A stretch of 64,000 bases of DNA from Minisyncoccia bacterium (GTDB taxonomy: Bacteria > Patescibacteriota > Minisyncoccia > UBA6257 > 2-01-FULL-56-20), in the NCBI GenBank assembly GCA_050008535.1, contig JBEKML010000001.1, forward strand, positions 260,633-324,632, given 5' to 3'. Shown piece after piece: positions 4,110 through 62,779 of this stretch (position 1 is its first letter; each line of letters starts with the position of its first letter). The notes below the pieces were generated by a model, which worked only from the letters and a program-made list of their open reading frames with translations, made no database searches and was not told the origin of the DNA. The position numbers and the translations under genes were made by a program.

Positions 4110-4145
4110 GGGCGAAAGGTCGCGGTTTAAAACAACAACAATCCA

Positions 4146-4352
4146 ATGATCGCAGCAGAAGGAGAAAAGAAAAAAGTGTCGGGGATCGAGATGGAGCTCA
4201 ATGGGGATATTCTCCAGTGGCGCGAGCGGTATGCCGACAACTCCGTGGGTGAGTGGAACACCGAAGCAGAGATAAATCCTAGCAACGCGCCCGGGGTGAA
4301 AAGGCTTCGGGAGAGGCTTCTTGCAGAAAGGGGTCTTACGGAAAGAGAATAG
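4146..4352 (+). CDS. hypothetical small protein (possibly non-coding transcript instead)
   Basis: 68-aa ORF downstream of the promoter at 4081-4109, with no clear RBS. Confidence 0.25.
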   Translation: MIAAEGEKKKVSGIEMELNGDILQWRERYADNSVGEWNTEAEINPSNAPGVKRLRERLLAERGLTERE

Positions 4353-4391
4353 AAAGTTGCGGGCGTTTCTGCGGGAGGGTACAATAGACCT

Positions 4392-9333: not shown

Positions 9334-9386
9334 TTTACCACGTTATTATTTACGATGCCAAGGGCCATAAAGTTTCATTACTCTTC

Positions 9387-10109
9387 CTATTCCAGCGCTC
9401 CGACAAAAACCTTTTGTAGGATTTCGCTTTTTATAATAGAAGTTGGGCTCCCTTCGGCGACAACCTTCCCCTTGTCAAGCACGTACCCGCGATTCACGAT
9501 TTCAAGAAGCGATTTGATATTATGCTCTACAATAAATATCGCCGTTTTGTGCCGTTCGTTAATGCGCTTCACGAGCTCAAAAATTTCCCTCACGAGCTTG
9601 GGAGCCAACCCCAGCGATGGCTCGTCCAGGAGCAATACTTTCGGATCCGTCATAAGCCCGCGCGCCAGAGCCAACATCTGTTGCTGGCCGCCCGAGAGCG
9701 TTCCGCCTCTCGCCTTCCGTTTTTCCCTCAACGCCGGGAATGTTTTCATGATCTCTTCTATCCGGCGTTTAAGTTCCGCTTTGTCGCCGACGATAAATCC
9801 GCCGACTTCCAGATTTTCCTCTACGGTGAGATTTGTGAAAACGCGCCGTCCCTGCGGAACGAACGCCACCCCCCGTTTCACCATCTCGTGCGATACGGGC
9901 ATTATGCGCTGTTCGTGAAAAAGAACCTCGCCCGAAGATATCGGCGCGAGGCCAAAAATGGTTTTCAAAACGGTGGATTTTCCGGCGCCGTTGGGGCCCA
10001 TAAGCGCCACCATCTCGCCCTCGTCAATCGCCACACTCGCTCCGTCCAGGGCCTTGACGCCGCCATAATGGACGTGGATGTTTCGAAGTTGTAATAAAGT
10101 TTCATTCAT
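9387..10109 (-). CDS. livF: branched-chain amino acid ABC transporter ATP-binding protein LivF
   Basis: Walker A GPNGAGKST, ABC signature LSGGQQQ, 240 aa. Confidence 0.9.
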   Translation of the reverse strand: MNETLLQLRNIHVHYGGVKALDGASVAIDEGEMVALMGPNGAGKSTVLKTIFGLAPISSGEVLFHEQRIMPVSHEMVKRGVAFVPQGRRVFTNLTVEENLEVGGFIVGDKAELKRRIEEIMKTFPALREKRKARGGTLSGGQQQMLALARGLMTDPKVLLLDEPSLGLAPKLVREIFELVKRINERHKTAIFIVEHNIKSLLEIVNRGYVLDKGKVVAEGSPTSIIKSEILQKVFVGALE

Positions 10110-37033: not shown

Positions 37034-38419
37034 ATGGAACACGTTGATGAAAATACAATCAGGCAGACAATGGCGTTTATGGACGTAAAAATATCGGACA
37101 TCGTTTTTTCAGACAAGAATCCGAGGAAGATCGGCGACGAGGGCCGTACGACGCTCCGCGCGAGCGTCCAAGGCGACCCCGACTTCTTCCGGGCGCGGCC
37201 AGTGATCCTCTCCAACCGCACCGGCAAGCCCGTCATGGTCGCGGGGGAACAACGGGCGCGCGCGGCGCAGGACTTGGGTATGGCGACCATCCCGGCGATC
37301 ATCGTGACACTCACCGAGGAGAAGGAGAAAGAATGGTCACTGAAGGATAACTTGCATCAGGGAGAATGGGACTGGAACATATTCAAAGAATTGGGCCTCG
37401 ACGACGATTTCCTGAAAAAGGTCGGATTCACGAGCGAGCAGCGCGACGAGATCTTCAAGATCGAGGTCGAGCCAGAGCAGTTCGACCTTTCCCGCGCGCT
37501 CGAAAAAATCGACATCCATAAAATCGATGCCCAGAAGGGCGACATCTACGACCTTGGCGGCGGCTCGCGCCTGATGGTCGGCGACAGCACCGTGCCGGAG
37601 GAGTTCGCGAAGCTCATGGGCGGTGAAAAGGGCGAGAAAGCGGACCTTTGCCTCACCGATCCCCCCTATATTTTGGACTACTTGCACGGGAAGAAAAAGA
37701 AAGGCGCGGCAGTGACCGGCTTCGGCGCGAAGCGCGACCGCCGGTATCTCGAAACGGATTCGCTGCCGGACAACTTCACGGAACTTTGGATGCGGAACGT
37801 GAAGGCGGCGGCGAAGGACGATTTCCACATCATCGTGTATGAGAACTGGAAGAATATCCGCACGATCTGGAACGAGATGGAGAAATACTGGAAGGTGAAG
37901 AACATGCTGGTGTGGCATTTGCCGAACCGCGTGCAGGGGTTCGCCGCGAAGTTCAAGTTCTTTTCGAAGCACGACATCGCGATGGTTGGCAGCTCGCGCG
38001 CAGCGGAAGAGCTGAACCTCGAGCCAGAGGAAGAGCTTCTCGAAAACGAATACGAGACCGCGCTCTACGCGGTTTCCGGCAAGCCGCACTGGGAGGGATA
38101 TGAAAAGGGCAAGCGGATCTGCCCGACGGATTTCATCGAGCACGTCGCCGCTGATGAGAAGTCGAGCGGGCAGGGCGTCGTCTTCGGCACGAAGCCGCTC
38201 GAGATCCTCATCCCGTACATCAAGGTTTTGACGAAGCGGGGCGACCTCGTCCTTGAGCCGTTCGGCGGCAGCGGGTCAACACTCGTCGCCGCGCATAAGT
38301 TGGGACGGCGCTGCTACGCGATGGAAAAAAGCAATGTATACGCGACCGTGATCATGAAAAGGTTCGAAAAAGCAACCGGCATAACGCCGAAGAAAATCTC
38401 CGATGGACGAGACCAATAA
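37034..38419 (+). CDS. ParB-like nuclease domain fused to N6/N4 DNA methyltransferase (phage-type ParB-MTase)
   Basis: N-terminal ParB/Srx motif (VMVAGEQRARAAQDLGMATIPAII), DPPY catalytic motif, C-terminal FGGSGST AdoMet motif. Confidence 0.85.
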   Translation: MEHVDENTIRQTMAFMDVKISDIVFSDKNPRKIGDEGRTTLRASVQGDPDFFRARPVILSNRTGKPVMVAGEQRARAAQDLGMATIPAIIVTLTEEKEKEWSLKDNLHQGEWDWNIFKELGLDDDFLKKVGFTSEQRDEIFKIEVEPEQFDLSRALEKIDIHKIDAQKGDIYDLGGGSRLMVGDSTVPEEFAKLMGGEKGEKADLCLTDPPYILDYLHGKKKKGAAVTGFGAKRDRRYLETDSLPDNFTELWMRNVKAAAKDDFHIIVYENWKNIRTIWNEMEKYWKVKNMLVWHLPNRVQGFAAKFKFFSKHDIAMVGSSRAAEELNLEPEEELLENEYETALYAVSGKPHWEGYEKGKRICPTDFIEHVAADEKSSGQGVVFGTKPLEILIPYIKVLTKRGDLVLEPFGGSGSTLVAAHKLGRRCYAMEKSNVYATVIMKRFEKATGITPKKISDGRDQ

Positions 38420-38897
38420 CAAGATAAGGGTTTCGGTGAGCGCGCGGCAGAAGGAGGAAAGGGACAAGGTGCTTCAGGAACTGCGCAAACTGCCGATCGT
38501 TTCGGTCGCCTGCGACCGCGCCTCAATCAGCAGGTGGACGTACTATCGTTGGAAAACCCAAGACAAGGAATTCGCCGCTGCCGCCGACGAGGCCATGCGC
38601 GACGGTGAGCAGTTCGTTTCGGACCTGTCCGAGGCCCAAGTCATCGGGTTGATCAAGGATCGCAATTTGGCGGCGATCACCCTCTGGCTCCGCTCTCACC
38701 ACGAGAAGTACTCGAACAAGCTCGAACTCACCGGGCAGGTGAAAGTCGCGCCCGAGGAACTGACGCCCGAGCAGCAAGCGGCCGTCGACCGCGCGCTGCG
38801 CCTCGCGTCGCTCGCCGGCGGCGAGGCAGCGCCGGACGGCAGCCCGGACAAACAAAATAACCAAATCAACCATGACAAACAACCAACCGGCCAGTGA
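38403..38897 (+). CDS. phage terminase small subunit (putative)
   Basis: HTH-like IVSVACDRASISRWTYYRWK; its stop overlaps the terminase large subunit start. Confidence 0.55.
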   Translation: MDETNNKIRVSVSARQKEERDKVLQELRKLPIVSVACDRASISRWTYYRWKTQDKEFAAAADEAMRDGEQFVSDLSEAQVIGLIKDRNLAAITLWLRSHHEKYSNKLELTGQVKVAPEELTPEQQAAVDRALRLASLAGGEAAPDGSPDKQNNQINHDKQPTGQ

Positions 38898-40479
38898 GGC
38901 CGACCTCATCAAAACGCTCTACGCGGACAGGGCGGTGCGGACGCAGATCGTCCGCGAGAGCCATTACTGGTTCTTCAATTTCTTCTTCCCGCATTATGTC
39001 GAATGCGCCCCCGCGCCGTTCCAACGCGAGATGTTCAAGATCACCGAGGACGAGTCGATCAAGCTCGCGGTCATCGTCGCCTTTCGCGGCTCGGCGAAGT
39101 CGACACTGGTCACGATGTCCTACGCGCTCTGGTGCATCCTCGGCGTCCAAGAGAAAAAGTTTGTCCTCATTTTGAGCAAGACCCAGGCGCAGGCGAAGGC
39201 GCATTTCGCGAATATCAAGCGCGAGCTGGAATTCAACGAGATGCTGCGCGCCCACCTCGGGCCGTTCGAAACAAAAGATGATGAGTGGGGTTCCTACACG
39301 ATCGTGCTTTCGCGGTACGGCGCGCGGATCACGATCGCGTCGTCGGAACAGAGCATCCGCGGGCTGCGCCACGGCGCGTTCCGGCCGCAGGTCATTCTCG
39401 CGGATGACGTGGAGGATTTGCAAAGCGTCAAAACGCTCGAGGGCAGGGACAAGGCGCACGAATGGTTTGTCGGCGAGGTGATACCGGCGGGCGACCGGGA
39501 TTCGCGCATTGTCGTGGTCGGAAACCTCCTCCATGACGATTCGCTCCTGAAGCGGCTCGTCAAAGGGATTGAAGACGGCATCCTCACCGGCATTTACAAG
39601 TTCTATCCGCTGGTTGACGCGGACGGCAAAATCCTGTGGCCGGGCAAGTATCCCGACATGGCGGCCGTGGAAAGCGAGCGGAAGCGGGTGGGCAACGAAG
39701 CGGCGTGGCAGCGCGAATACCTCCTGAAGATCATTCCCGATTCGGAACGCGTCGTGCGCGAGGAATGGATTCATTACTACGACGGGCTGCCGAGCGACTA
39801 CAGCGACGATTTCCGTTTCGCGGCGACCGGCATCGACCTTGCCATCGCGGAAAATGCGACAAACGATTATACGGCGATGGTTTCGGCGAAGGTATTCGGT
39901 TACCGGGAGAACCTGCGGATTTTCATCCTGCCGAATCCCGTGAATGAGCGACTCGACTTCCCCGACCAGCTCGAGCGCGCAAAGGCGCTGTCCAGGAGTT
40001 TGGGCAGCGGCGTAGTGACGAAGCTCTTCATCGAGAGCGATGGGTACCAGCGGTCTCTCGTCCAGCAGCTCCAGCGGGAGAACTATCCCGCGTTCGAATT
40101 TCAGACGCGCGGCCATGACAAGCGTGCGCGGCTTTCGATCACGACGAACCCCATCTACAGCGGCACAATCCTTTTCCCACGGCACGGCGCGGAACAGCTC
40201 ATCCAGCAACTCCTTAACTTCGGCTCGGAACGGCACGAAGACCTTGCCGATGCATTCGCGATCCTCATCTTCAAGATTCTGGAAAGCGACACGGGCGGCA
40301 TTACTTTTCCCCGGCCGTACGGTGCCGCCGAGGCGGAGCAGCAAAAGACCCGCGAGGAGTTGGAGCGCGACGCCGATAACGAATTAATAGAGGAAAGCAA
40401 CCGTGAGCGCAGCAAGGGCAACTGGCGAAATTCGGGAAACGGACCGTCGTCCCGCCGCGCCGGTGGCTTCATGTGGTAA
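38872..40479 (+). CDS. phage terminase large subunit
   Basis: Walker A-like VAFRGSAKST, ATPase then RNaseH-like nuclease domain, 535 aa. Confidence 0.85.
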   Translation: MTNNQPASEADLIKTLYADRAVRTQIVRESHYWFFNFFFPHYVECAPAPFQREMFKITEDESIKLAVIVAFRGSAKSTLVTMSYALWCILGVQEKKFVLILSKTQAQAKAHFANIKRELEFNEMLRAHLGPFETKDDEWGSYTIVLSRYGARITIASSEQSIRGLRHGAFRPQVILADDVEDLQSVKTLEGRDKAHEWFVGEVIPAGDRDSRIVVVGNLLHDDSLLKRLVKGIEDGILTGIYKFYPLVDADGKILWPGKYPDMAAVESERKRVGNEAAWQREYLLKIIPDSERVVREEWIHYYDGLPSDYSDDFRFAATGIDLAIAENATNDYTAMVSAKVFGYRENLRIFILPNPVNERLDFPDQLERAKALSRSLGSGVVTKLFIESDGYQRSLVQQLQRENYPAFEFQTRGHDKRARLSITTNPIYSGTILFPRHGAEQLIQQLLNFGSERHEDLADAFAILIFKILESDTGGITFPRPYGAAEAEQQKTREELERDADNELIEESNRERSKGNWRNSGNGPSSRRAGGFMW

Positions 40480-40853
40480 TTAACGCAAACCATAAAAATA
40501 TGGAAAAGAATTTTATATTCAAATATAGTGTCATCCCCATTGGGGACCAAGCGATGTTCGTGCCGTGGTTCCAAGAAACCAAGGAACATTTACTCGCGAA
40601 CGTTATGATCAAAAGCTTCATGCAGAATCGGGAATCCATCAGTTATTTCTGGCATTTCTCGTTGATCATCGAGGTATCAATGGACATGGGATATTTGGTC
40701 GCGCCGACCGTGGTCGAGATCCTCTGGCATCTTTTCAAAGAGGAACTCATTCCGATTTATAGCTTGGTTAACGTTGACCGGGATTGGGTTCCCGAGAGCA
40801 CGCGGCAATGTTTCGCGGAAGCGAGGAAAATTGCAGCAGTGCAAGGCGTCTGA
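40473..40853 (+). CDS. hypothetical protein
   Basis: ORF directly after terminase, same strand; start uncertain (possibly Met at 40500). Confidence 0.35.
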   Translation: MVINANHKNMEKNFIFKYSVIPIGDQAMFVPWFQETKEHLLANVMIKSFMQNRESISYFWHFSLIIEVSMDMGYLVAPTVVEILWHLFKEELIPIYSLVNVDRDWVPESTRQCFAEARKIAAVQGV

Positions 40854-41172
40854 AAAAGACTTAAAAGGCGTTTGGGACAATCTTGACTTTCCCCACCAGC
40901 GCGTCATCCATCAAGTTATGGATGCTCGCAGGAGAAAACTTTTGGCGCAGATCGCGAAGTGCGGCCGGTGCGGCTCACGGCTTGTTCCCGTTAAGAGCAA
41001 ATATAAATCCATCCATTATATTTGCCCGAAAATGAAAAATCGGGCTTGTGAGGGATGCCATATCGGCGAAGAAGAATTTATAAAACAGCTTGCGGCTCTT
41101 TTAAAAAGGAAGAGGATCGAGATAACGCTGGAGGAAAAAGAAACCGGTACAAAGGTCGCAAAAGAAGAATGA
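40774..41172 (+). CDS. zinc-ribbon protein resembling the Zn-beta-ribbon domain of large serine recombinases (standalone)
   Basis: LLAQIAKCGRCGSRLVPVKSKYKSIHYICPKMKNRACEGCHIGEEEFIKQLAALL; true start may be Met at 40918. Confidence 0.4.
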   Translation: MTGIGFPRARGNVSRKRGKLQQCKASEKDLKGVWDNLDFPHQRVIHQVMDARRRKLLAQIAKCGRCGSRLVPVKSKYKSIHYICPKMKNRACEGCHIGEEEFIKQLAALLKRKRIEITLEEKETGTKVAKEE

Positions 41173-41766: not shown

Positions 41767-42792
41767 ATGCCTTCCCCCGACATATTCGCGCGCATTAAAG
41801 CCCTCAACCTGCCGTTTGGGCAATACGTCGTCGTGGGAAGCGGCACGCTTGAGGCCTTGGGCATCCGCCCTGCCAACGACCTCGACATTGCCGTAACGCA
41901 GGAGCTGTTCGAAAAACTTCGCAAAGACGGAAGCTGGAAGGAAGAAGAGCGGTATGGGAAGGCGTTTCTCATGAAATCGGGCATCGACATTATTCTCCAG
42001 CTTTCATGGGACGCCTATCCCACCACCACTGCGGAAGCGATTGCCTCGGCGCTCGTGATCGATGGCGTGCCTTTTATGAGCATTAAAGAACTGAAACGTT
42101 TCAAGAGAGCGCTCGGGCGCGAAAAAGACATGGCCGACATCGCGCTCATTGAAGAATATGAGACGATCGTGCGCGATGTGCAATCTGGAAGAGTATGCAC
42201 ATTCTACGTTGTCCGTCACGGCGAGACCCACGCGAACACAAAAGGCCTTATCCAAGGGCAGTCTGATTTCATACTTTCGGAAAACGGGGAAAAGCAGGCT
42301 GCTAATCTCGCAAAGAAGTTGGGTCAGATCCATTTCGCCGCCGCCTTCTCCTCCGACCTTGTCCGCGCGCACCGAACGGCCGAGATAATCACTCTTGAAA
42401 GAAAACTTGCCATTAACACAAGCCAGCTCCTCAGGGAGCGGAATTTTGGGAAGTACGAGGGTAAGCCGCAAGAATCTTTCAGCGAAGAAAACAAGAAGTT
42501 TTTGGACCAACTCGCCTCACTGCCTTATGAAGAAGGGAAAAAACTCAAAGCAGCCGAAGACATCGAGAACGATGACGAATTGACCGACCGCTTCATAACC
42601 TTCCTGCGCGAAATTGCCGTGACGTACCAAGAGAAAACGGTTTTGGTGGTTACGCACGCTGGCCTTATGCGTGCATTCCTCAAACACATCGGCCATGATT
42701 TATCCAGCAGCTTTATAGAGAACATCGCTTATTTCCGATTGCGCTCCGACGGGATTGATTTTCTTATTGATGAAACTTCCGGCATCAAATAG
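41767..42792 (+). CDS. fusion protein: N-terminal minimal nucleotidyltransferase (Pol-beta-like) domain plus C-terminal histidine phosphatase (phosphoglycerate-mutase family) domain
   Basis: N-terminal GSGTLEALGIRPANDLDIAV (GS...DxD NTase signature); C-terminal VVRHGETHANTKGLIQGQSD (RHG catalytic motif) and later H. Confidence 0.7.
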   Translation: MPSPDIFARIKALNLPFGQYVVVGSGTLEALGIRPANDLDIAVTQELFEKLRKDGSWKEEERYGKAFLMKSGIDIILQLSWDAYPTTTAEAIASALVIDGVPFMSIKELKRFKRALGREKDMADIALIEEYETIVRDVQSGRVCTFYVVRHGETHANTKGLIQGQSDFILSENGEKQAANLAKKLGQIHFAAAFSSDLVRAHRTAEIITLERKLAINTSQLLRERNFGKYEGKPQESFSEENKKFLDQLASLPYEEGKKLKAAEDIENDDELTDRFITFLREIAVTYQEKTVLVVTHAGLMRAFLKHIGHDLSSSFIENIAYFRLRSDGIDFLIDETSGIK

Positions 42793-42863: not shown

Positions 42864-43739
42864 ATGCAAGAACTTCTCGATTTAATGACGCAGATATGGA
42901 TTAATTCCGGTCTGCCGACTTTCCGCTTTAACCGATTAACCGAAAAGAAATGGCATTTTGCAATCCGGCAGGAACTTCTTCCTCGGATCGAAATTTACTG
43001 GGCGAACCTCACGTATGCGTTATGTGAGAGGCAAGCCGTAAATTCGGTTTTCGAGGTTCCGTTCGCGGCAACCAACGAAGCCGCCATTATCTGGATTTCC
43101 AAACTGGAGTGCGTTTTCTCGGAACGTGCAGACGTTGATACTTCGAGAGTGCCGAAACCACACATTGTCCATCCGATAATGTTTGCTTTGGGTGGTCCGA
43201 GTGGGGTTGGCAAAACCGCAGTGATCAAAAAACTGAAAAGTGAAATGCCACAGACGGTATTAACTTTCCCCGCCTATACAACCAGGCCAAAGCGCCGCGA
43301 TGAAATTGAGGGCGTTGATTATTATTTTCGCAACAATGCCGATTTCATATCGGCCCGCAAGGATCCTCGTTTTGGCTGTTTTATAGAGGCGCGGGGATTT
43401 TGGTATTGGACAAGTCCGATAGTTATTCTGCGGAGCGTTTGGCATGACTCGGACAAGATCTATGCGACCGTCATCCAGCAACGCCACGAATTAGAGCAAA
43501 GGAGGCGGCTTTTCCCGAAGTTACGCTGGATCTGGCTTAGCGCACAAGAAGAAGATTTGCTGGATCGTCTCGTGGGGCGGGGCGATGAAGACGTTCAATC
43601 GTCGATTGCCTTTAACCGCAAACTGGCAGCGCAGGTTGTCGACGACTTGGTTGATCTGCGCATCACGACAAAATCCGGCGAGCTTGATCGTGTCGCCGAA
43701 CAAATCAAAGCATACTGCTTGAATCTGAAAGGAGCTTAA
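42864..43739 (+). CDS. protein with unknown N-terminal domain and C-terminal guanylate-kinase-like P-loop domain
   Basis: GGPSGVGKTAV Walker A plus TTRPKRRDEIEGVDYYF (Gmk signature). Confidence 0.7.
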   Translation: MQELLDLMTQIWINSGLPTFRFNRLTEKKWHFAIRQELLPRIEIYWANLTYALCERQAVNSVFEVPFAATNEAAIIWISKLECVFSERADVDTSRVPKPHIVHPIMFALGGPSGVGKTAVIKKLKSEMPQTVLTFPAYTTRPKRRDEIEGVDYYFRNNADFISARKDPRFGCFIEARGFWYWTSPIVILRSVWHDSDKIYATVIQQRHELEQRRRLFPKLRWIWLSAQEEDLLDRLVGRGDEDVQSSIAFNRKLAAQVVDDLVDLRITTKSGELDRVAEQIKAYCLNLKGA

Positions 43740-43741
43740 CC

Positions 43742-44521
43742 GTGCAAGCGATTGTGACGATCTGCGATAAGCATTACAAAGTCCTCCTTCCCCTTTGGAC
43801 GGAGAGAATTCGTTCTGTAACTTCAATGCCCGTTGTGGTTTTGGGTTTAGCGGGCGCGGAAATTTCCGCTTCACCGGATTACGAAGTGATCCCGGTCAAT
43901 CCAATCGGCAATCCGTTTCCTACGGAACTGCCCGATCACGCATGCGCTGAAAAGCTGCGTGTCTTCCATCATCTGCCGGAAAAGTTCAGCGAAGTCCTGT
44001 TTGTCGACGTAGATGCTTTGGTGCTCAATGACTTTTGGACGGAGGCGAATTATTTTCAAATCGCCCAATCCGTACTCGTCGCAGCGCCCGACCTCTTTGT
44101 CGGCTACAAGGAAAAAATGGAAGAAGAGTTCAGGCCGTTCGACCCCGGCTTTCGGATGAAGTTTTTTTCCGATGGCCGATACTTCTACTTCAATACCGGG
44201 GTGTTCTTCGCATCACAAAGAATTCACGCCGATATTTTCCGCGCCACCCTAAAAAAGTGGTCGGAGTACGTGGGGTGCGTCGGCAGGTATCCCTCCATAT
44301 TCGACCAGAACATCTTGAATTACTGCCTGATCAAATTCGGCGTCGAGGTTGTCCCCATGCCGGTACAAAATAATTGCCTGCGCCAGTACGATTCGGTTTG
44401 GATTGACGGTTGTTTGCGCTTAGGCGGGGAAAAGGTAAATGTATACCATTTCAACGGCGGCGAGGCGGCCGTTAAGCTACAGCGTTGGCATGAGTTCAAC
44501 CAGAAATATGGAGCGTCGTGA
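43742..44521 (+). CDS. glycosyltransferase family 8-like (GT-A, DxD)
   Basis: VDVDALVLND (DxD), FNTGVFF, FDQNILNY, HFNGG motifs parallel to LgtC/glycogenin. Confidence 0.65.
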   Translation: MQAIVTICDKHYKVLLPLWTERIRSVTSMPVVVLGLAGAEISASPDYEVIPVNPIGNPFPTELPDHACAEKLRVFHHLPEKFSEVLFVDVDALVLNDFWTEANYFQIAQSVLVAAPDLFVGYKEKMEEEFRPFDPGFRMKFFSDGRYFYFNTGVFFASQRIHADIFRATLKKWSEYVGCVGRYPSIFDQNILNYCLIKFGVEVVPMPVQNNCLRQYDSVWIDGCLRLGGEKVNVYHFNGGEAAVKLQRWHEFNQKYGAS

Positions 44522-45189
44522 TGAGCATACCTCAACTTAGCCCGAGCATTGTCTGTTATAACGGCTCCTTCCAGGAAACTGCAAACCTATTAGGTGCGCT
44601 CGGTTGTCAACGGGCGCATATCGATGTGACGATGGGTTACAGCATCCATGGATTGTTTCGTTATGAAAACTTTGAACTCGGAGATAGATTACACTTCGAT
44701 ATGGGAGTCGATCTGCACATCTTCGATTTTCGCCGCCAATGGGAATACCAAGATTTGCCCCTTCGCGAGAACGACTGCGTGATTTTCCATTGGTTTCCCT
44801 GGACTAATCGGCACGAAGTGGAAAAGCTGTTAGAGCGGGGTTTCCCGCGCGGGATCCGTTGCGGCCTTGCCTTGGATTTGCAAGCGCCGCTCTCGGACGT
44901 ACTCCCATTGTTCCCCGTAATTGATACCTTGATGGTCATGGGGATTGAAATTGGCGGCAGGGGAATTCCCTTGAATGAGAAGGCAATTTCGGATTTACGC
45001 AAAGCGAGATCAGCGGCGCTTGCCACGGGTAAGGAGATCTGCCTTGGCATTGATGGCGGTGTAAACGCAAAGACTTTCTCCGAGCTTGCCAAGCTTGCTG
45101 ATACGCTTGTAGTGGGAGGATTGCTCTTTAATGCTCCCGATATTGCTGCCCAATGGTTGGAACTCAACCGTTGGCTAAAGGAGGCGTGA
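44518..45189 (+). CDS. ribulose-phosphate 3-epimerase-like TIM-barrel protein (divergent)
   Basis: SIVCYNGSF...HIDVTMG...DLHIF...VMGIEIGGRG...IDGGVN...VVGGLLF parallels RPE motifs. Confidence 0.55.
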   Translation: MMSIPQLSPSIVCYNGSFQETANLLGALGCQRAHIDVTMGYSIHGLFRYENFELGDRLHFDMGVDLHIFDFRRQWEYQDLPLRENDCVIFHWFPWTNRHEVEKLLERGFPRGIRCGLALDLQAPLSDVLPLFPVIDTLMVMGIEIGGRGIPLNEKAISDLRKARSAALATGKEICLGIDGGVNAKTFSELAKLADTLVVGGLLFNAPDIAAQWLELNRWLKEA

Positions 45190-46229
45190 TGAAAGAACGT
45201 TCAGGTGGAGAAGTTATTAACCTCGTTGTCGGCGAACTGCTGGAAGCGTTCCGCGTCGATCCGGAAAGGGCGATGGTGGTCGGCGTGGCGGGGAAGGTTG
45301 CCAGTGGCAAATCCCGCTTTACGGCAAAATTCTGCAAAACTTTGTCCTCTGTCCTGTCGGGCGAAGTGGTCTATCTCCCATTCGATCTCTGGATTGATCG
45401 CCAGAATCTTAATGCGCCAAGCTATCACGATAGGTTTTTACTCGGCGAATTCGGAGCCGCTCTTGAAAGTATCTCTTTGGGCAGTTTATGGTTTTGTCCG
45501 CGGCACGATCTGACGAAACATGGCTTCAATGGGGCGCAAGCTCAATTGAACTATGAATCCCTGGAGGTGTCGTGGCATCATCGAAGCTTTAGAAAGGTCA
45601 GCAGCCTGCACGAGCTGGCCGATCTCGGAGGCGCTTCCGGCGTTTACGCAGACGCCGATACCCAAAGACTTTACAGTCTCTTCTTACCAAAACGAAACGT
45701 CGCATATGTCATTGACGGCACTCTCGTTTTTTGGCCCGAAGAGATAAAGCCTTACTATCACCGGAAGATATTCATTGCCAGCTCTTGGCCAGAACGGGTG
45801 GCAAGGATGATACGGCGCTTTAACCGGCACGAAGTTTTTGGCAGAACCAACGAAACGGAGCGCGAGTACGTCGGCTTTCTGGTGTCCGAGGCAAAGCAGT
45901 GCGCCGACAATGAGATAGACCAGCAGCTTGACGATAGCATGATCGTCGTCAAAAGTTCGGTGGAAACTATCTCGAATTTGCTCGATCTCCATCATCTTCG
46001 CGGCGAACTGATGCGCGACGGCGATTGCGCTGCGGCTTATGCTCTTTCCCTCGAAGAAGTTGATGGCGCGTTGAAAGCGGCGCGTGAACACCTGGCTTCC
46101 ATTGTCATGCCTGAACCGCTCTCGCTGCTCAGAGAGGAACTCAGCCATCTCATCGAAAGCAAACACTTGCTGTCCATTGAGGGCGTTGATGAGGTGCTGA
46201 GCCAACTGGCGGCAATCTTGTTAAGGTGA
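45189..46229 (+). CDS. P-loop kinase of the phosphoribulokinase/uridine kinase family
   Basis: VVGVAGKVASGKSRF Walker A; ATGA overlap with the previous gene. Confidence 0.55.
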   Translation: MKERSGGEVINLVVGELLEAFRVDPERAMVVGVAGKVASGKSRFTAKFCKTLSSVLSGEVVYLPFDLWIDRQNLNAPSYHDRFLLGEFGAALESISLGSLWFCPRHDLTKHGFNGAQAQLNYESLEVSWHHRSFRKVSSLHELADLGGASGVYADADTQRLYSLFLPKRNVAYVIDGTLVFWPEEIKPYYHRKIFIASSWPERVARMIRRFNRHEVFGRTNETEREYVGFLVSEAKQCADNEIDQQLDDSMIVVKSSVETISNLLDLHHLRGELMRDGDCAAAYALSLEEVDGALKAAREHLASIVMPEPLSLLREELSHLIESKHLLSIEGVDEVLSQLAAILLR

Positions 46230-46308
46230 TTTTTAGGGGTGATTTGATGTTTTATAACGTTGAATCGCCCCATTTTTATACATGATCACATCGTGATATC
46301 ATTTACTC

Positions 46309-46863
46309 ATGACAGATAAAAATTTAAATATGAATCCGGCAGATGAATTATTGCAATGCTTTGATGAACAAGGACGCGCCATTGAACCCCGGCGGCGCGG
46401 AGAAGTCCACACCGAACCTTTGCAGTATTGGCATGGCGTCGTCAATATTTGGGTTGCAGGAATTGATGGAAAGATTTTATGCTCGCGAAGATCGTCTTGG
46501 GTTTCGGGGAATCCCGGCAAATGGCAAAGTTATTTCGGCGGCCATGTGCGGGCAGGTGATTCATTCCGAGAGACAGCCATCCGGGAGCTTCAGGAAGAAA
46601 TTGGACTGTCGGTTCATCCGGATATGCTTTATCTTGTAGATAAAGGGCAATATCTGCCGTCAAAACATTTTTATGAAAGTTATTTATATGTTTTCAGCGG
46701 AAATTTGGACGCGATAAAGTTCAATGACGGGGAAATCGATCAGGTTAAATGGTTGGGCATGGAGGAATACCAGCGAGACCGGGAGAACAACCCAACTCAA
46801 TGGTGTAATGGCCTTTCGCCCGAAAACCAAGCGAGGATTAAAGATCGTCTCCATTTGGTTTGA
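46309..46863 (+). CDS. Nudix hydrolase
   Basis: Nudix box GGHVRAGDSFRETAIRELQEEIGL. Confidence 0.8.
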   Translation: MTDKNLNMNPADELLQCFDEQGRAIEPRRRGEVHTEPLQYWHGVVNIWVAGIDGKILCSRRSSWVSGNPGKWQSYFGGHVRAGDSFRETAIRELQEEIGLSVHPDMLYLVDKGQYLPSKHFYESYLYVFSGNLDAIKFNDGEIDQVKWLGMEEYQRDRENNPTQWCNGLSPENQARIKDRLHLV

Positions 46864-46945: not shown

Positions 46946-47872
46946 ATGCGTGATCCAAACGATTTTGCCATCGTCACTTCTTATTACAACCCGATGGGCT
47001 ATGAAACCCGGCGCGTCAATTATGATTTATTCATTTCGGCGTTGAGCGGTTTGCGCGCGAACGTCATTACCATTGAATGCGCATTTCCGGGACAGGCGTT
47101 TGCGCTGCCGCCATCGCCTCAAATCATCCAGGTCAAGAGCGAAAGCGTTCTTTGGCAAAGGGAGAGGCTGGTCAATTTGGTCAACGCTTCTTTGCCCCTT
47201 TCGATTAAGTCCGTTGCATGGGTGGATTGCGACTTATTGTTTACCAACGTCAATTGGATTTCTGATGCGATGTCATTGCTCGATCGCTATCCGATTGCGC
47301 AGTTGTTCGAACGATGCATTCGCTTGCCCAAGGGACATCTGTCGTATCAGGGCGAAGGCAAGATATCAACGAGCTTTGCTTCGGTCACCACGAAGAACCC
47401 CGCAGTTCTCGCGCCTGGATCAAATCTAAAACATGGCATCACCGGAGGGGCATGGGCTGCGCGGTGTGAAGTGATCGAGGCTTGCGGATTGTACGAGTAC
47501 GCAATTGTCGGCGGTGCTGACGATTACTTGGCCCATGCCGTTTATGGGGATTTCGATTCTGATTGCGTCAAACGCAAAATGGAATACGATCCGGCGTTGA
47601 TTCGGCATTACCGCGAATGGGCGGAGTTATTTTATTCCCAGACGCGGGGAATGCTTGGCGTGGTGCCTGGCGACGTTCTGCATCTTTGGCACGGCGAATT
47701 GGACAACCGAAAATATTTCGATCGCCACAAGGAACTCCACCGATTGGGATACAATCCCTATCTCGATATAGTAGCCCCTCCGGGGCGGCCATTGGAGTGG
47801 TCATCCCACGCCAGCGTGCCCTTGCGCAATTGGTTCTACGATTATTTCCGGGAACGGAAAGAAGATGGATAG
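46946..47872 (+). CDS. GT-A fold glycosyltransferase (GT2-like)
   Basis: FAIVTSYYNP N-terminal motif and WVDCDLLF DxD motif. Confidence 0.55.
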   Translation: MRDPNDFAIVTSYYNPMGYETRRVNYDLFISALSGLRANVITIECAFPGQAFALPPSPQIIQVKSESVLWQRERLVNLVNASLPLSIKSVAWVDCDLLFTNVNWISDAMSLLDRYPIAQLFERCIRLPKGHLSYQGEGKISTSFASVTTKNPAVLAPGSNLKHGITGGAWAARCEVIEACGLYEYAIVGGADDYLAHAVYGDFDSDCVKRKMEYDPALIRHYREWAELFYSQTRGMLGVVPGDVLHLWHGELDNRKYFDRHKELHRLGYNPYLDIVAPPGRPLEWSSHASVPLRNWFYDYFRERKEDG

Positions 47873-55455: not shown

Positions 55456-58446
55456 ATGGAATCGCCGATTCTCAATTCACCCTATGCAGAGCCGGATCGG
55501 CACTTCAAGTCCAACGATCGCGGCCTCACGGACGAGGTGGCGCGCAGCCGCCGCGCGAGCAGCCTTTATATCCCTGTCCCGAGGGCGAAGACAAAACAGC
55601 AAAAGCTCGACCTGAACCTCGCGGAGGGCGCGTTCGGCAGCGAACTCCAAAAAGAGAACGAGTTCGTCAACAAGGTACGGGCGAAAATAAAAGCGTGGCG
55701 CGAGAGCGGATACCCGGGCATCACGAAAACATCTCGCGACCTCCTTGCCTACTGGAAAGACGAAACGAGGGAGAACAAGCTGTTCTTCTGCCAGATCGAG
55801 GCGCTCGAAACTTTCATTTTTGCGAACGAAGTCGCCGAGAAATCAGGGGAGAGTTGGCTCGTGAACGAACTCAAAAAGGCGAACGCGGACGCGAACCCCG
55901 GCCTTTACCGCATGGCGCTCAAGATGGCGACCGGATCGGGGAAGACGGTCGTGATGGCGATGATCATCGCGTACCACACGCTGAACAAGATCCGCTATCC
56001 CCAAGACACGCGGTTCACCGATGCCTTTGTGGTCGTTGCGCCGGGCATCACGATCCGCGACCGCCTCTCGGTGCTGTACCCGAACAACCCTCGCAACTAT
56101 TACCGCGAGCGCGACGTCGTTCCGTACCAAGATTTTGAGTTGCTCCAGCAGGCGGTCGTGTTCATCACCAATTTCCACCAGCTCGAGCAGCGGCAAAATC
56201 CCCGCCTGCCGTTGGGATCGGTATTGAAGGCTGCCGAACTTATCAAGGAGGAAGTGATCAAGGAAACTCCCAACGCCATGGTTCTGCGCACGTTCAAAAG
56301 CATCCTTGGCAAGCCGCGCGTTCTCGTCATCAACGACGAAGCCCACCACTGCTACCGCGAGAAGCCAACAAAGGAAAGATTCGTTGGCGAAGACCGGAAG
56401 GAAGCAGACGAGAACAACAAGGCGGCGCGCGTCTGGATCAGCGGCCTTGAGGCGCTTTCGAAAAAGATCCAAGTGAGCGCCATCGTCGACCTCTCGGCGA
56501 CGCCATATTTCTTGAGCGGATCGGGATATCGGGAGGGAACGCTGTTTCCTTGGACCATATATGATTTTTCGCTGCTCGATGCGCTCGAGTGCGGCGTCGT
56601 GAAAATTCCGCGCCTGCCGATCGAATCCGACACCATCAAGCAGGACGAAGAGCCCGAATTCCGCAACCTGTGGCTCCACATCCGGGAGGACTTGCCGAAG
56701 AAGGGGTTGAAAACCGGCGATTACGACCTTTCGGTTCTCGTCCTGCCCAAAACGCTCCAGGAGGCTCTCGAATCGCTCTACGGCAGCTATGAGCAATCCT
56801 ATCGGGCGTACGAGTCGGCGAAAAAGGACAACCCGAACGTCATGCCGCCGGTCATGATCGTCGTTTGCAACAATACTGCGGTGTCGGAACTGGTGTACCG
56901 GTGGATCGCCGGTTACCAGCGGGAAACGGCGAGCGGGAAAACGAAAATCGAAAAGGGCAATATGGAAATTTTCCGGAACGAAGACGGCGTGCGGTTCCTT
57001 GACCGGCCGAATACGCTGATCATCGACAGCGCGCAGCTTGAGAGCGGCGAGAAAGTCGGTGACGAATTCAAACAGATATTCGCAAAAGAGATAGAAGATT
57101 TCCAAAAAGAATACAAAAAGCGGTTTGCCGGGCGTGAAGAACCAACGGATGAGGAGGTTTTACGTGAGGTCATGAATACGGTCGGGAAACCCGGGAAGCT
57201 TGGCGAGAACATCAAATGTGTCGTCTCGGTGTCGATGTTGACTGAAGGTTGGGACGTGAACACAGTGACCCACATCCTCGGAGTCCGCGCCTTCTCGACG
57301 CAGCTCCTCTGCGAGCAGGTCGTCGGACGGGCGCTCCGGAGGGTGGACTACGGCGTTGACGAGAAGACTGGGCTGCTCTCGCCGGAATACGCGGAAGTGT
57401 ACGGCGTGCCGTTCAACTTCCTCAAGGCGGAGGGCGGGCCAACTACGGTGCAACCGCCCAAGGTGATCCACCGCGTCCACGCGATGCCCGACCGGGAGCA
57501 ATACGAGATCACCTTCCCGCGCGTCGAAGGATACCGGTACGAGTTGGACGAGGCGAAACTCGCCGCGCATTTCACCGAAGGCTCAAGAACGGTAATTGAG
57601 AATGAGCCAACCGAGGTGACAAGCAGCGGCATCGTCGGCGAGGAAACGAAAGAAACGATGGTGAAAATCAAGGAACGGCGCGAAGGCGAGGTGGTGATCC
57701 GGCTCGTCCAGGGACTGCTCAAAAGGTATTACACCGACGCCGACGGGAACGAAAAGTACTGGCTTGGGCCGCAGCTCATGCGGATCGCCGAGGAGTACGT
57801 GAAGCGCCACGTCGTCCTCAAGGACCGCATGGTGATAGGATACCTTCTGGTCGGCGAATATTTCTCCGGCGCGCTCACGAAAATTCAGCAGGCGATCGTC
57901 GCCGAGAATATCGAGCACCGGGAGAACAAGAAGCTCCTGCCCATCCTTGCCGCCTACGACCCGATAGGGTCGACCCGCTACGTCGATTTCCTCACGACGA
58001 AGCCGGTTTGGGAAACGGCAAAGAGCCATCTGAATTACGTCGTCGCGGACACGGAGGAATGGGAGCAAGGCGTGGCGAAGCGGCTGGAGCAGATGCCCGA
58101 AGTAATCTCCTATGTGAAGAACCAGAATCTAGGGTTCGCGGTTCCCTACGAGCATCAGGGCGTCGCGCATCATTATTTGCCAGACTTCATCGTCAAAATT
58201 GAGGGTCTGGACAAATCCGTCCTTTACCTCATCCTTGAGGTGACGGGAAAGAAGGACGACAAGAAGACGATGAAGGTAAAGACGGTGAAGGAATTTTGGG
58301 TTCCGGCGGTGAACAATGCGGGGCGGTTCGGGAAATGGGCGGCGCTCGAGGTGCAGGACATCCACGAGGTGCAGAACCTGATCCATGCCGGACTCGCGGA
58401 GGGGTTCGAAAACGTAAAAGCAGGAACGCTGTTTAATAAACGATAA
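55456..58446 (+). CDS. res: Type III restriction enzyme Res subunit (SF2 helicase plus C-terminal PD-(D/E)xK nuclease)
   Basis: MATGSGKT, DEAHH, LSATP, QVVGRALRR helicase motifs; C-terminal YLPDF...LILEVTGKKD nuclease motif; 996 aa. Confidence 0.85.
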   Translation: MESPILNSPYAEPDRHFKSNDRGLTDEVARSRRASSLYIPVPRAKTKQQKLDLNLAEGAFGSELQKENEFVNKVRAKIKAWRESGYPGITKTSRDLLAYWKDETRENKLFFCQIEALETFIFANEVAEKSGESWLVNELKKANADANPGLYRMALKMATGSGKTVVMAMIIAYHTLNKIRYPQDTRFTDAFVVVAPGITIRDRLSVLYPNNPRNYYRERDVVPYQDFELLQQAVVFITNFHQLEQRQNPRLPLGSVLKAAELIKEEVIKETPNAMVLRTFKSILGKPRVLVINDEAHHCYREKPTKERFVGEDRKEADENNKAARVWISGLEALSKKIQVSAIVDLSATPYFLSGSGYREGTLFPWTIYDFSLLDALECGVVKIPRLPIESDTIKQDEEPEFRNLWLHIREDLPKKGLKTGDYDLSVLVLPKTLQEALESLYGSYEQSYRAYESAKKDNPNVMPPVMIVVCNNTAVSELVYRWIAGYQRETASGKTKIEKGNMEIFRNEDGVRFLDRPNTLIIDSAQLESGEKVGDEFKQIFAKEIEDFQKEYKKRFAGREEPTDEEVLREVMNTVGKPGKLGENIKCVVSVSMLTEGWDVNTVTHILGVRAFSTQLLCEQVVGRALRRVDYGVDEKTGLLSPEYAEVYGVPFNFLKAEGGPTTVQPPKVIHRVHAMPDREQYEITFPRVEGYRYELDEAKLAAHFTEGSRTVIENEPTEVTSSGIVGEETKETMVKIKERREGEVVIRLVQGLLKRYYTDADGNEKYWLGPQLMRIAEEYVKRHVVLKDRMVIGYLLVGEYFSGALTKIQQAIVAENIEHRENKKLLPILAAYDPIGSTRYVDFLTTKPVWETAKSHLNYVVADTEEWEQGVAKRLEQMPEVISYVKNQNLGFAVPYEHQGVAHHYLPDFIVKIEGLDKSVLYLILEVTGKKDDKKTMKVKTVKEFWVPAVNNAGRFGKWAALEVQDIHEVQNLIHAGLAEGFENVKAGTLFNKR

Positions 58447-58457
58447 CCAAAAAAATC

Positions 58458-60896
58458 ATGCCAAGGAAAAAAATGTCACAACCGACAAACGCCGCTCCGG
58501 TGGAGTCGTACAAGCACCGCGAGAAGCGCGTCCGAATTCCAACGCAGGAAGAGTCCGTCAAGCTTCCGGCGCGGGACAAGCAGCCGATGAAGAAAAAATA
58601 TGATTACGATCCGTCGCTCGACCCGCAGCTCGTGTGGGCCGGCAAAAAAGAGGCGGGGGCGGAGTTCGGCGTGGCGACGGTGCCGATTTACGTCCAGGAG
58701 AATATCGCGCCCGAAGCCATCATCGCGCGCCTCAAGGCAGGCGCGAAGGAAGATTTCCAACCATTGCTTTTCGGCGAAACGGCGCAGATGCAGTTCTCGA
58801 AAGCAGTTGATTTTTACAAGCACGAGGAAAATTGGCGCAACCGCATGATCCTCGGCGACTCTCTGGTCGTAATGAACAGCCTGCTCGAGAAAGAAGGGCT
58901 GCGCGGCAGGGTACAAACAATCTATATTGACCCGCCGTATGGAATAAAATTCGGGTCCAACTGGCAGGTCTCAACGCGCAAGCGCGACGTAAAGGATAAT
59001 AAGCTTGAAGATTTTATCCGCCAGCCGGAACAAGTGAAGGCGTTCCGCGATACATGGGAACTTGGCATACATTCTTATCTTTCGTACTTAAGAGATCGAC
59101 TCACGGTAGCTCGCGAACTGCTCACTGAAAGCGGATCGTGTTTTGTGCAGATTAATGATGAAAATGTTCACCATATTCGGGAATTGATGGATGAGGTTTT
59201 TGGATATGACAATTTAGTTGCCCATATAGTTTTTGTAACACGAGGGGTTCTAAGTTCGGCGGACATTGTAAGTAAATTCGATCATTTATGCTGGTACGCT
59301 AAAGACAAGAAAACGGTAAAGTTTCGACAATTATTTACGGAGAAGAGTGAGGAAGATTTTGGAAACTACCCCTATTTTTGGGCCAAAGATGGGAGTCTTC
59401 AAAATGCGACAAAGGATACACCACCAGATCAACGTTTTGCGTTTGCCGATTTCAATTCGTCCGGCCTGACACCCACATGTGTTTTCCCGATCGAAATAAA
59501 CGGGCGAACATATATGCCGCGCCCTGGAAAGTCTTGGAGAACAAACAAGGCGGGAGCTGAACGGCTTATAAAAAAAGAAAGGTTGGTGCCAAGGGGCAAT
59601 AGTATTTCTTATATTACCTATTTAAATGAATTCCCCGTTTCTCGAATTACAAATCTTTGGAATGATACCGGACCGCAGTTGGGGAAGATTTATGTGGTTC
59701 AGACTTCCGAGGAAGTAAATAAGCGATGTGTATTGATGACGACTGATCCGGGTGATTTGGTTATTGATCCTACTTGCGGATCTGGCACGACTGCATATAT
59801 TGCCGAACAATGGGGTCGTCGTTGGATTACGGTGGATACTTCACGTGTCGCGCTTGCATTGGCGCGTACGCGTCTCATGACGGCAAAATTTCCCTATTAT
59901 AAACTTAGGGAAAGAAATGTTGTTGCGTCTGGATTTGAATGCAAAACTGTGCCACATGTAACTCTCAAATCTCTCGCCAATGACGAGCTGCCGGAACAAG
60001 AGGTGCTTTGCGATCAGCCATTTGAAAACAAAGAAATCACGCGCGTTTCTGGGCCGTTTACCGTCGAATCGTTATCGCCGCACCGGATCTCAGACGCGCA
60101 GGAAATGATTTCTTCGGAGCACTTTGTCGAAACCGTCATCTCCAACCTGCTCAAGTCCGGCGTTCAAACCGGTCAAAAAGGTGCCCGGGTTGAATTCGCT
60201 AATTTAGATATTCTCCCCGGCGGGCCGGAGATTCAGGCGGCCGGCGAATACGAGACCGAAAACGGGTTGAAGAAAGTCGCCGTTTCCATCGGGCCGGAAT
60301 TCGGCAGCGTTGACGACGACTTCATCCGGGACGGCGCGAGCGTCGCCAAGCGGTTCGCAGATCTGCTGGTCGTCGCAGCGACGTCCTTCGACGCGTCAGC
60401 ATTCTCAATGCCCGCCGAAATAGGCAACTTGAGAATCATGCGGGTGAAAATAAATCCGGATTTATCAATGGGCGATCTGTTGAAGAAAACGGGATCCGGC
60501 AACCTTTTCCTCGCGTTCGGCGAACCGCAGGTGAATATAAAACAAACAAAGGAAGGAGTTGTCGCCGAAGTCGTCGGCGTGGATGTCTACGATCCCGTGA
60601 CGAGCGAAATCCGTTCAAGCGGCTCCGGCGATCCCGAGCACGAAATCGCGGCATGGTTCATAGACACCAATTACAACGGCGAGGCATTCTTCGTAACGCA
60701 CGCATATTTTCTCGGAGCCGACAAACCCTACGAGAAACTGAAAAAAGCTCTCAAAGCCGATATCAACGAAAGCGCATGGGAAGAACTTTACTCAACCGTA
60801 TCTCGGCCGTTCCCAAAGCCAAAAACCGGTCAAATCGCCGTGAAAGTGATCAACCATTACGGAGACGAGGTGATGAAAGTGATTCCAGTTTCCTGA
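58458..60896 (+). CDS. mod: Type III-like DNA methyltransferase (Mod) with extended C-terminal region
   Basis: IYIDPPYGIKFG (motif IV) and DPTCGSGTTAYIA (motif I); 812 aa. Confidence 0.8.
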   Translation: MPRKKMSQPTNAAPVESYKHREKRVRIPTQEESVKLPARDKQPMKKKYDYDPSLDPQLVWAGKKEAGAEFGVATVPIYVQENIAPEAIIARLKAGAKEDFQPLLFGETAQMQFSKAVDFYKHEENWRNRMILGDSLVVMNSLLEKEGLRGRVQTIYIDPPYGIKFGSNWQVSTRKRDVKDNKLEDFIRQPEQVKAFRDTWELGIHSYLSYLRDRLTVARELLTESGSCFVQINDENVHHIRELMDEVFGYDNLVAHIVFVTRGVLSSADIVSKFDHLCWYAKDKKTVKFRQLFTEKSEEDFGNYPYFWAKDGSLQNATKDTPPDQRFAFADFNSSGLTPTCVFPIEINGRTYMPRPGKSWRTNKAGAERLIKKERLVPRGNSISYITYLNEFPVSRITNLWNDTGPQLGKIYVVQTSEEVNKRCVLMTTDPGDLVIDPTCGSGTTAYIAEQWGRRWITVDTSRVALALARTRLMTAKFPYYKLRERNVVASGFECKTVPHVTLKSLANDELPEQEVLCDQPFENKEITRVSGPFTVESLSPHRISDAQEMISSEHFVETVISNLLKSGVQTGQKGARVEFANLDILPGGPEIQAAGEYETENGLKKVAVSIGPEFGSVDDDFIRDGASVAKRFADLLVVAATSFDASAFSMPAEIGNLRIMRVKINPDLSMGDLLKKTGSGNLFLAFGEPQVNIKQTKEGVVAEVVGVDVYDPVTSEIRSSGSGDPEHEIAAWFIDTNYNGEAFFVTHAYFLGADKPYEKLKKALKADINESAWEELYSTVSRPFPKPKTGQIAVKVINHYGDEVMKVIPVS

Positions 60897-62553: not shown

Positions 62554-62779
62554 AACTGGACTTTTTCCGAAAGCCGCGTCATCATTGAGTTATAACTGAA
62601 TATCAGATAGAGACCTAACCCCGGACGAGCTTTTCAATGCTTTTCGGGCATGGTTGCAAACCCAGTCAAGGATAAAGACCCCATCATATGGGAACGCCTT
62701 GACTGGTCATAGCTGGAAACGGCTATGGGTGGCCCTTCGGGACCATCGCCCATGTGGTGGGTTTTTTGCCGCCTAAAAA

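Follow-up and report, generated by a model that had tools for sequence, protein, structure and literature searches.

A rare operon of divergent kinase, epimerase and glycosyltransferase genes, mainly from uncultured lineages, and its candidate sugar-phosphate pathway

Pathways to ketose nucleosides of the angustmycin/psicofuranine type use a pyrophosphokinase resembling phosphoribosyl pyrophosphate (PRPP) synthetase together with a phosphoribosyltransferase. These pathways and the chemistry of PhnN, a ribose 1,5-bisphosphokinase, are the parallels we draw for an operon in a 64,000-nucleotide stretch of DNA, hereafter the window, from a Minisyncoccia bacterium (GenBank assembly GCA_050008535.1, contig JBEKML010000001.1, positions 260,633 to 324,632 of the forward strand). 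The core of the operon, at 42864-46229 of the window on the plus strand, encodes a guanylate kinase (Gmk)-like protein, a glycosyltransferase (GT) of the GT8 type, a protein resembling ribulose-phosphate 3-epimerase (RPE), and a P-loop kinase of the uridine kinase/phosphoribulokinase (UCK/PRK) type. The parallel is an analogy only: an RPE-family 3-epimerase would act on a ketose phosphate, a sugar diphosphate would be built, and hydrolytic trimming would follow. Unlike the angustmycin pathway, the operon has neither the PRPP-synthetase-like pyrophosphokinase nor the phosphoribosyltransferase and carries a GT8 enzyme and P-loop kinases instead.

An earlier reading of the window, made from the letters alone and called here the sequence-only reading, had flagged the Gmk-like, RPE-like and UCK/PRK-like enzymes. 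Judged from their sequences, these three are catalytically intact yet highly divergent members of their families and form the core of the operon. By its distribution, the operon is rare and horizontally mobile, and it is found in cellular genomes, mostly of Patescibacteria (the candidate phyla radiation [CPR]) and other uncultured lineages. With a probability of roughly 0.45, we tentatively read it as a self-contained pathway that would build and glycosylate a phosphorylated ketose-derived small molecule. A single small-molecule pathway is the simplest reading because the enzymes keep their catalytic machinery and their genes are coupled and, in one copy, fused. We found this gene combination described neither in the full-text literature that was searched, papers from Aravind's group included, nor, as an operon, in Pfam, NCBIfam, PHROGs, or PADLOC.

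The four-gene core and its enzymes

The interval holds four open reading frames (ORFs), not three: those of the Gmk-like kinase (42864-43739; 291 amino acids [aa]), the GT8-type enzyme (43742-44521; 259 aa), the RPE-like barrel (44518-45189; 223 aa), and the UCK/PRK-like kinase (45189-46229, with an ORF readable from 45153). The first two are separated by a 2-nucleotide gap, the GT and RPE-like genes overlap in GTGATG, and the RPE-like and kinase genes overlap in TGATG. These junctions, together with a GGAGG ahead of the kinase start, indicate that the four genes are translationally coupled. The ATG at 45189 is probably the real start of the kinase gene, giving 346 aa, because it overlaps the RPE stop, has the GGAGG upstream, and agrees with homologues of 340 to 348 aa. 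The sequence-only reading had set its three enzymes between two glycosyltransferases. GTs do occur in the same unit, and the flanking placement is not what we see: the first GT lies inside the interval. At 100% identity, the Gmk-like protein matches ABSC29_01610, a protein encoded on a 535-kb contig of an NCBI metagenome-assembled genome (MAG) labeled Minisyncoccia; the other genes are publicly annotated as "hypothetical" or in generic terms.

The Gmk-like ORF contains AYTTRPKRRDEIEGVDYYF and the P-loop GGPSGVGKT, and its family assignment survives profile tests against Pfam (Guanylate_kin, 1.4e-9, residues 109-175), NCBIfam (guanyl_kin, 3.3e-16), and PHROGs (guanylate kinase, 1.4e-18); the match to the model of the PRPP-forming kinase PhnN is weaker (2.2e-7). 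Its NCBIfam score is 59.4, against an equivalog cutoff of 160.45. It shares 28 to 29% identity with genuine Gmks in the alignment, a figure diluted by the N-terminal extension, and 28 to 35% locally with most bona fide matches. We examined an alignment of 18 sequences, with 15 homologues from the operon and two genuine Gmks among them. The P-loop, R141, R144, E147, Y153, and Y181 are invariant in it and E175 nearly so, and the TTRxxRxxExxGxDYxF motif characteristic of Gmk (PF00625) and PhnN is kept on the P-loop nucleoside monophosphate (NMP)-kinase core. We take R141, R144, and Y153 to be phosphate binding and E175 to be the counterpart of the guanine-binding Glu, from Gmk structures.

In Gmk, guanine is contacted by a Ser just ahead of TTR, by the Ser/Thr in YYG[ST], and by the Asp in the IDxxG strand. 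The operon family has GNWYW[I/T] where Gmk has GNYYGT, and it has other residues in place of that Ser and of the acidic residue in I-D-x-Q-G. The phosphate-binding Arg and Tyr, which the sequence-only reading had proposed to check, are thus kept and the guanine-specific contacts are not, so that the protein has the P-loop and NMP-binding residues of a functional Gmk and lacks its guanine contacts and equivalog score. By analogy, the expected chemistry is phosphate transfer onto a phosphomonoester. The protein further departs from Gmk in its extra N-terminal domain, its GT8 neighbor gene, and one fusion to an RPE-like domain. The domain was suspected earlier to be about 130 aa long and of no recognized family; it matched nothing in any of the libraries tried, and its length comes to about 105 aa (residues ~1 to 105, 42864-43178). 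W46 and P99 are invariant in this extension, which most family members keep and which is missing in loci L003, L017, and L023.

The GT8 gene is the most conserved of the module. The single sequence matches Pfam GT8 at only 0.0028, the family profile matches LgtC at 1.9e-4, and an AF2 model with a predicted local distance difference test (pLDDT) score of 94.8 gives LgtC as the top Foldseek match (6.9e-12), followed by LARGE1 and GT6 enzymes. In the family, D89/D91 (the DxD motif), D188-Q189, H236..G239..K245, and W249 are invariant or nearly so, and they align to LgtC. On a GT-A fold, the protein thus carries the DxD, DQ, and HxxGxxK(P)W features of retaining GT8 enzymes, and LgtC is its closest structure. 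Unlike LgtC-type GT8 enzymes, it is a small soluble protein from a tight family of about 70 members confined to the operon. Identity is 50 to 86% across the operon loci and 39 to 86% for protein-database homologues. One lone GT homologue, L048, sits within a polysaccharide cluster.

The divergent RPE-like barrel proposed from the sequence held up. It matches Pfam Ribul_P_3_epim (1.2e-13) over profile positions 22 to 198 of 198, the NCBIfam RPE subfamily (2.6e-17) and allulose-6-phosphate epimerase (1.3e-10) models, and solved RPEs in the PDB at values down to 2e-13. The tetrad H34, D36, H67, and D179, together with the D179-G-G-V phosphate loop, is invariant in nine members of the operon family and aligns with the corresponding residues of potato RPE 1RPX. 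The protein therefore shares with RPE and D-allulose-6-phosphate 3-epimerase (PF00834) the (beta/alpha)8 barrel at full length, the metal-binding and catalytic His/Asp tetrad, and the C-terminal DGG and G-[SG] phosphate loops. Unlike RPE, it has the methionine "cushion" positions replaced (T/M and F, by pairwise alignment), and its family has further invariants of its own at D86, H91, D120, and R164. Its NCBIfam scores of 48 to 63 bits, set against cutoffs of 165 to 271 (48 against 213 for rpe), are below all equivalogs.

The fourth ORF carries the Walker A motif GVAGKVASGKS. The kinase has no Pfam match, PF00485 included, and the single sequence reaches the NCBIfam udk model over the P-loop only (4.6e-5, with a score of 23 against a cutoff of 180). 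A uridine-kinase/PRK-type assignment is nevertheless supported by a profile of 28 sequences, which matches UCK2 in the PDB at 2.7e-7, and by a structure model (pLDDT 89.5). In the profile alignment, D78 corresponds to the catalytic Asp of UCK2, and the ribose-binding stretch FDHPDAF of UCK lies where the family has lost 7 residues. The protein thus has a UCK/PRK-type P-loop fold with a catalytic Asp, without the FDHPDAF stretch of uridine kinases. It differs further from the UCK/PRK/PanK clade (PF00485 and relatives) in carrying a beta-hairpin insert at 128-177, about 50 residues long, and a helical domain that takes up some 110 residues at the C terminus. The model matches UCK2, PRK, PanK, an FrcK-like kinase, Yfh7, and GLYK about equally, and PRK structures are no closer than those of PanK, Udk, and FrcK-like kinases. 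As to the ribulose-5-phosphate site of PRK, an Arg-rich lid is present, though it is not mapped onto PRK residues. Because it is equidistant from UCK, PRK, PanK, FrcK-like, and GLYK kinases, no substrate can be transferred to it. Only 49 kinase homologues, and 70 homologues of the GT, were found among 5.8 billion proteins. We also considered an analogy with the NARP (NAD+ reconstitution) systems and rejected it: NARP3 is an unrelated PnuC/NadR pair, and the kinase profile meets NRK1 at an insignificant E value of 0.29.

The last core gene encodes an Idi/YfcD-like Nudix hydrolase (46309-46863, plus strand; Pfam NUDIX, 5.8e-17), whose family profile matches isopentenyl diphosphate (IPP) isomerase at 3.7e-14 and YfcD at 1e-13. 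The Nudix box E-x2-EE-x-GL is invariant (E93, E96, E97, G99, and L100), and the position of the catalytic Cys of Idi is a Gly (G77-G78-H79). The hydrolase box is therefore intact, and the feature of isomerase activity, a Cys/Glu pair in Idi, is absent. Between the kinase and Nudix genes of the window lies a terminator-like hairpin, found by pattern match directly after the kinase gene (46236-46271; 16-bp stem with 6 GC pairs, followed by a T-run), and then a promoter-like site (46275-46302, ATTTTTAT, a pattern match only), both on the plus strand. In this copy, the Nudix gene and those downstream may be transcribed separately from the kinase gene.

Gene order and distribution

About 45 loci were gathered from scans of species genomes and metagenomes and from exact look-ups. 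In about 25 independent loci (tblastn), the order is fixed: Gmk-like, GT8, RPE-like, an APH-like kinase in some copies, UCK/PRK-like kinase, and Nudix. The Nudix gene follows the kinase in at least 17 loci. The APH-like kinase, which resembles APH(2''), occurs in 16 of these loci between the RPE-like and UCK/PRK-like genes and is not in the window copy; some copies of the operon also carry genes for an Hsp70-like ATPase and for a second GT-like protein. L010 has a natural fusion of the Gmk-like and RPE-like enzymes, a single protein of 480 aa (2947-4389), and its copy lacks the GT8 gene.

Other copies are rearranged or reduced. In L003 (2872-8606, minus strand), the GT8 gene has the opposite orientation and is the first in a divergently oriented string of genes that includes an AAA_33 kinase (378 aa) and a fusion of Nudix with a domain resembling Tad2 (Thoeris anti-defense 2); the latter hints at ADP-ribose-type ligands. 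An extra AAA_33 kinase on the opposite strand is found in L010, L014, and L038, and that of L003 is separate and does not cluster with these. In Nostoc and Brasilonema, an intact UCK/PRK-like kinase stands beside a truncated RPE-like remnant (L006, L007, and L009), and in L001, of the same set, the kinase stands alone with no RPE match. Since it is retained with a remnant or by itself in these loci, the kinase seems useful outside the full operon. In a plasmid collection, we found only a distant Gmk-like/GT pair, on plasmid pSD of Geobacter anodireducens (L050): two unannotated overlapping ORFs at 7988-9624, Gmk-like with 22% identity that includes the N-terminal region and GT8-like with 34%. 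The kinase profile matched neither of the ORFs flanking the pair, and the RPE profile did not match the downstream one. From this plasmid copy, the Gmk-like/GT pair may be the oldest submodule.

The hosts are labeled as Patescibacteria, Minisyncoccia, Saccharibacteria, a Woesearchaeote, a gammaproteobacterial MAG, Poribacteria, and unclassified bacteria. Most of the loci with the fixed order lie on cellular chromosomes. The nearest copy of the module, 93% identical to that of the window, sits between a DeoR-type gene and ClpB/HtrA, without a terminase or other phage genes. Other copies adjoin rpoBC, mnmA, PBP1, tyrS, proBAC, recA, or ftsK, and the neighbors of L017 include a polysaccharide deacetylase. 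A radical-SAM gene beside the rearranged copy in L024 raised the question of a 7-deazaguanine link, which we dropped since the gene encodes a PflA-type activase. No riboswitch that might give a clue to the metabolite was found upstream of the operon by an Rfam scan at the gathering threshold of the window and 23 related loci.

Two accessory genes follow the Nudix gene in the window, in the same direction as the four-gene block. The first (46946-47872, plus strand) encodes a 308-aa protein without a match in Pfam, PHROGs, or NCBIfam and without a PDB match by sequence or profile; L020, L034, L045, and the 93%-identical contig carry it at the corresponding place. Its family comprises 4,195 cluster representatives at an E value of 1e-3 or below, with an invariant W92-x-D94-x-D96 and an HLWHG motif (relatives P0240 to P0389), and its members are often tandemly duplicated or fused to GT2, GT4, GT8, NodZ, or methyltransferases. 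These fusions point to glycan or glycoconjugate chemistry, and the protein is probably a glycosyltransferase-like enzyme of a family that has not been modeled. It would be the second glycosyltransferase of the sequence-only reading; it comes after the Nudix gene, and its GT nature is supported indirectly, through the family fusions. The second accessory gene (48003-49250, plus strand) encodes a Hsp70/YegD-like actin-fold ATPase (Pfam HSP70, 4.4e-30; NCBIfam PRK11678, 2.7e-64), which also adjoins the module in L012, L017, L023, L045, L047, and the 93%-identical contig.

Surroundings in the window

The window is bacterial chromosome, encoding GroEL, a thioredoxin-reductase-like protein, an M1 peptidase, a GyrB/ParE-type protein, dihydroorotate dehydrogenase, ABC transporters, a DEAD helicase, and a cyclopropane synthase. 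A mosaic island begins at about 35.7 kb and contains in turn a ParB-methyltransferase, a terminase pair, a truncated recombinase, the operon, a tRNA-Arg (53231-53315), and a Res/Mod pair. Its first part (37034-41172, plus strand) encodes a fusion of a ParB-like nuclease with a DNA methyltransferase (461 aa) and, just downstream, a TerS-like protein (164 aa) and TerL (535 aa; no Pfam match), and then a 132-aa fragment that matches the C-terminal part only of a large serine recombinase. This part looks like a degraded prophage or an island that hijacks packaging. Among the ORFs examined in the island, we saw no portal, capsid, or tail genes, and a search of 33.5 to 54.5 kb for a direct repeat of the tRNA-Arg that might mark an att site gave none.

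The gene directly 5' of the operon encodes no glycosyltransferase but a fusion of a 135-aa N-terminal domain (phrog_12854, function unannotated) with a histidine phosphatase (41767-42792, plus strand; His_Phos_1, 4.5e-42). The phosphatase resembles ribazole phosphatase and phosphoglycerate mutase and stands beside the operon in no other locus. Downstream, at 55456-60896 on the plus strand, genes in the order Res, then Mod encode a ResIII helicase/nuclease-like protein of 996 aa and an N6_N4 DNA methyltransferase of 812 aa; L003 has a similar pair next to its copy of the operon. A full-length match to the LOOT RNA (RF03000) lies among small ORFs where the island ends, at 62612-62747 on the plus strand (70.6 bits, against a gathering threshold of 46.4; E value, 3e-11).

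What the operon may make

In the pathway that we favor, the RPE-like enzyme would invert C3 of a phospho-ketose, either a pentulose 5-phosphate or a hexulose 6-phosphate. The UCK/PRK-like kinase would phosphorylate sugar hydroxyls in the manner of PRK, as would the APH-like kinase where present, and the Gmk-like enzyme would convert a phosphomonoester to a diphosphate by phosphate transfer, as in NMP-kinase or PhnN chemistry. The GT8 enzyme would transfer a hexose from a UDP-sugar with retention, and the Nudix hydrolase would cleave a diphosphate as a final or controlling step. The product might serve to diversify surface glycans, act as a metabolite akin to a compatible solute, or be a conflict molecule; a link to glycans is supported by the GT fusions of the 308-aa family, by the polysaccharide cluster around L048, and by the deacetylase beside L017. 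Several observations weigh against such a pathway. No nucleotidyltransferase is conserved in the module, so that the GT donor would have to come from outside it, and the copy without a GT gene in L010 means that glycosylation is not obligatory. With E175 kept, the substrate of the Gmk-like enzyme may still be a purine nucleotide instead of a sugar phosphate. A Pfam scan pooled over 81 neighbor proteins showed no overall enrichment of any neighbor family. Finally, of the loci with enough flank, about a quarter have restriction or conflict genes no more than 10 kb away, an arrangement that suits defense no less well than biosynthesis.

We consider it very unlikely that the genes are housekeeping paralogues (gmk, rpe, and udk or prk) serving nucleoside or pentose salvage in a reduced CPR host, for example by feeding a nucleoside/RuBisCO pathway. 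The families do belong to nucleotide and pentose-phosphate metabolism, and the hosts are largely of salvage-dependent CPR/DPANN types (Minisyncoccia, Patescibacteria, Saccharibacteria, and Woesearchaeota by label). However, the scores are far under the equivalog cutoffs (59 of 160 for Gmk, 48 of 213 for rpe, and 23 of 180 for udk), local identity to most bona fide Gmks is low, the genes are strictly linked to GT8 and Nudix genes, the kinase persists in Nostoc and Brasilonema beside an RPE remnant, and the counts of 49 kinases and 70 GTs are incompatible with a core function. Since the guanine-specific and uridine-ribose-binding residues are lost, the enzymes are not housekeeping duplicates, as the sequence-only reading had anticipated. 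That reading fares worse in placing the genes in a mobile element and likening them to phage kinases that make modified dNTPs or bis-phosphorylated sugars; on this view, they would be phage or mobile-element cargo for the hypermodification of DNA, which the GTs would decorate. P-loop kinases and GTs take part in known phage DNA hypermodification, and the module starts 2.4 kb downstream of the TerS/TerL pair (TerL, 6.5e-74 in PHROGs), close to the ParB-methyltransferase and the truncated recombinase, in a dip of GC content (0.49 to 0.51, against 0.53 to 0.60 around it). A terminase next door does not make the operon phage cargo, however: the nearest copy lacks the surrounding phage genes and others adjoin rpoBC, recA, or tyrS, and neither a hydroxymethylase, a dNTPase, nor a DNA polymerase accompanies the module, which has no base-modifying enzyme beside it. 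In the 50,697 phage genomes of INPHARED, there was no match to 12 kb of the sequence (megablast) or to the kinase or GT (tblastn). In the 2.9 million contigs of IMG/VR, the operon was not found and the GT had no relative, and the kinase gave one match, to a Brasilonema contig (L016, which is the same as L009) that carries the kinase alone beside an RPE remnant. The type IV enzymes McrBC and GmrSD near some copies cut modified DNA, which argues against glycosylation of a host's own DNA. On a bacterial chromosome and with no portal, capsid, or tail genes among the island ORFs examined, the module is scarcely to be explained in this way.

An anti-phage defense or conflict system is a possibility that we take seriously and still think unlikely. 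On infection, such a system would either produce an analogue of a nucleotide or nucleotide sugar that is toxic or terminates chains, or deplete a nucleotide pool. Activation of the analogue up to its di- or triphosphate would fall to the kinases, and protection of the host to the Nudix hydrolase. Serial kinases would suit such stepwise activation, and the patchy distribution looks like one of horizontal transfer. A type III-like Res/Mod pair lies 8.6 kb downstream in the window and a type III restriction-modification system 2.8 kb downstream in L003, where the Nudix-Tad2-like fusion is on the divergent strand. McrBC and a methyltransferase-restriction endonuclease are directly upstream in L018, GmrSD is 1.7 kb upstream in L047, and L024 has a HerA-like protein, ThiF, and a GT4 that also matches a "GT4-conflict" model; M78/HTH pairs occur in L003 and L018. 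Because small CPR genomes put most accessory genes in few variable regions, such adjacency is weak evidence, and many copies stand among housekeeping genes with no defense neighbor. The lack of an enriched neighbor family counts here too, no sensor or effector domain was recognized, and the 5,027 PADLOC models (PADLOC-DB v2) gave only weak generic matches (PDC-M51B, 0.0017; PDC-S07, 3.4e-7, through the Nudix fold; and PDC-M61B, 0.0035). We regard as rather improbable a more specific form, in which the operon would represent a new kind of conflict system based on nucleotides or sugars: a mobile, self-contained pathway of three to four kinases, an epimerase, a GT8 enzyme, and a Nudix hydrolase would make an unknown phosphorylated, glycosylated ketose or nucleotide analogue that acts against phages or against the cells of the hosts of episymbiotic CPR. 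It would account for the repeated placement beside McrBC, GmrSD, and type III restriction genes.

The enzymes each add a new subfamily to a textbook family, and the operon occurs mainly in uncultured bacteria with reduced genomes, whose accessory metabolism is little known. Identification of the product would define a new sugar-phosphate or nucleotide-sugar pathway and would give functions to a GT8 clade, to a UCK/PRK-like clade not captured by Pfam, and to a large GT-like family of more than 4,000 representatives. If the operon protects against phages, it would be a new metabolite-based defense system.

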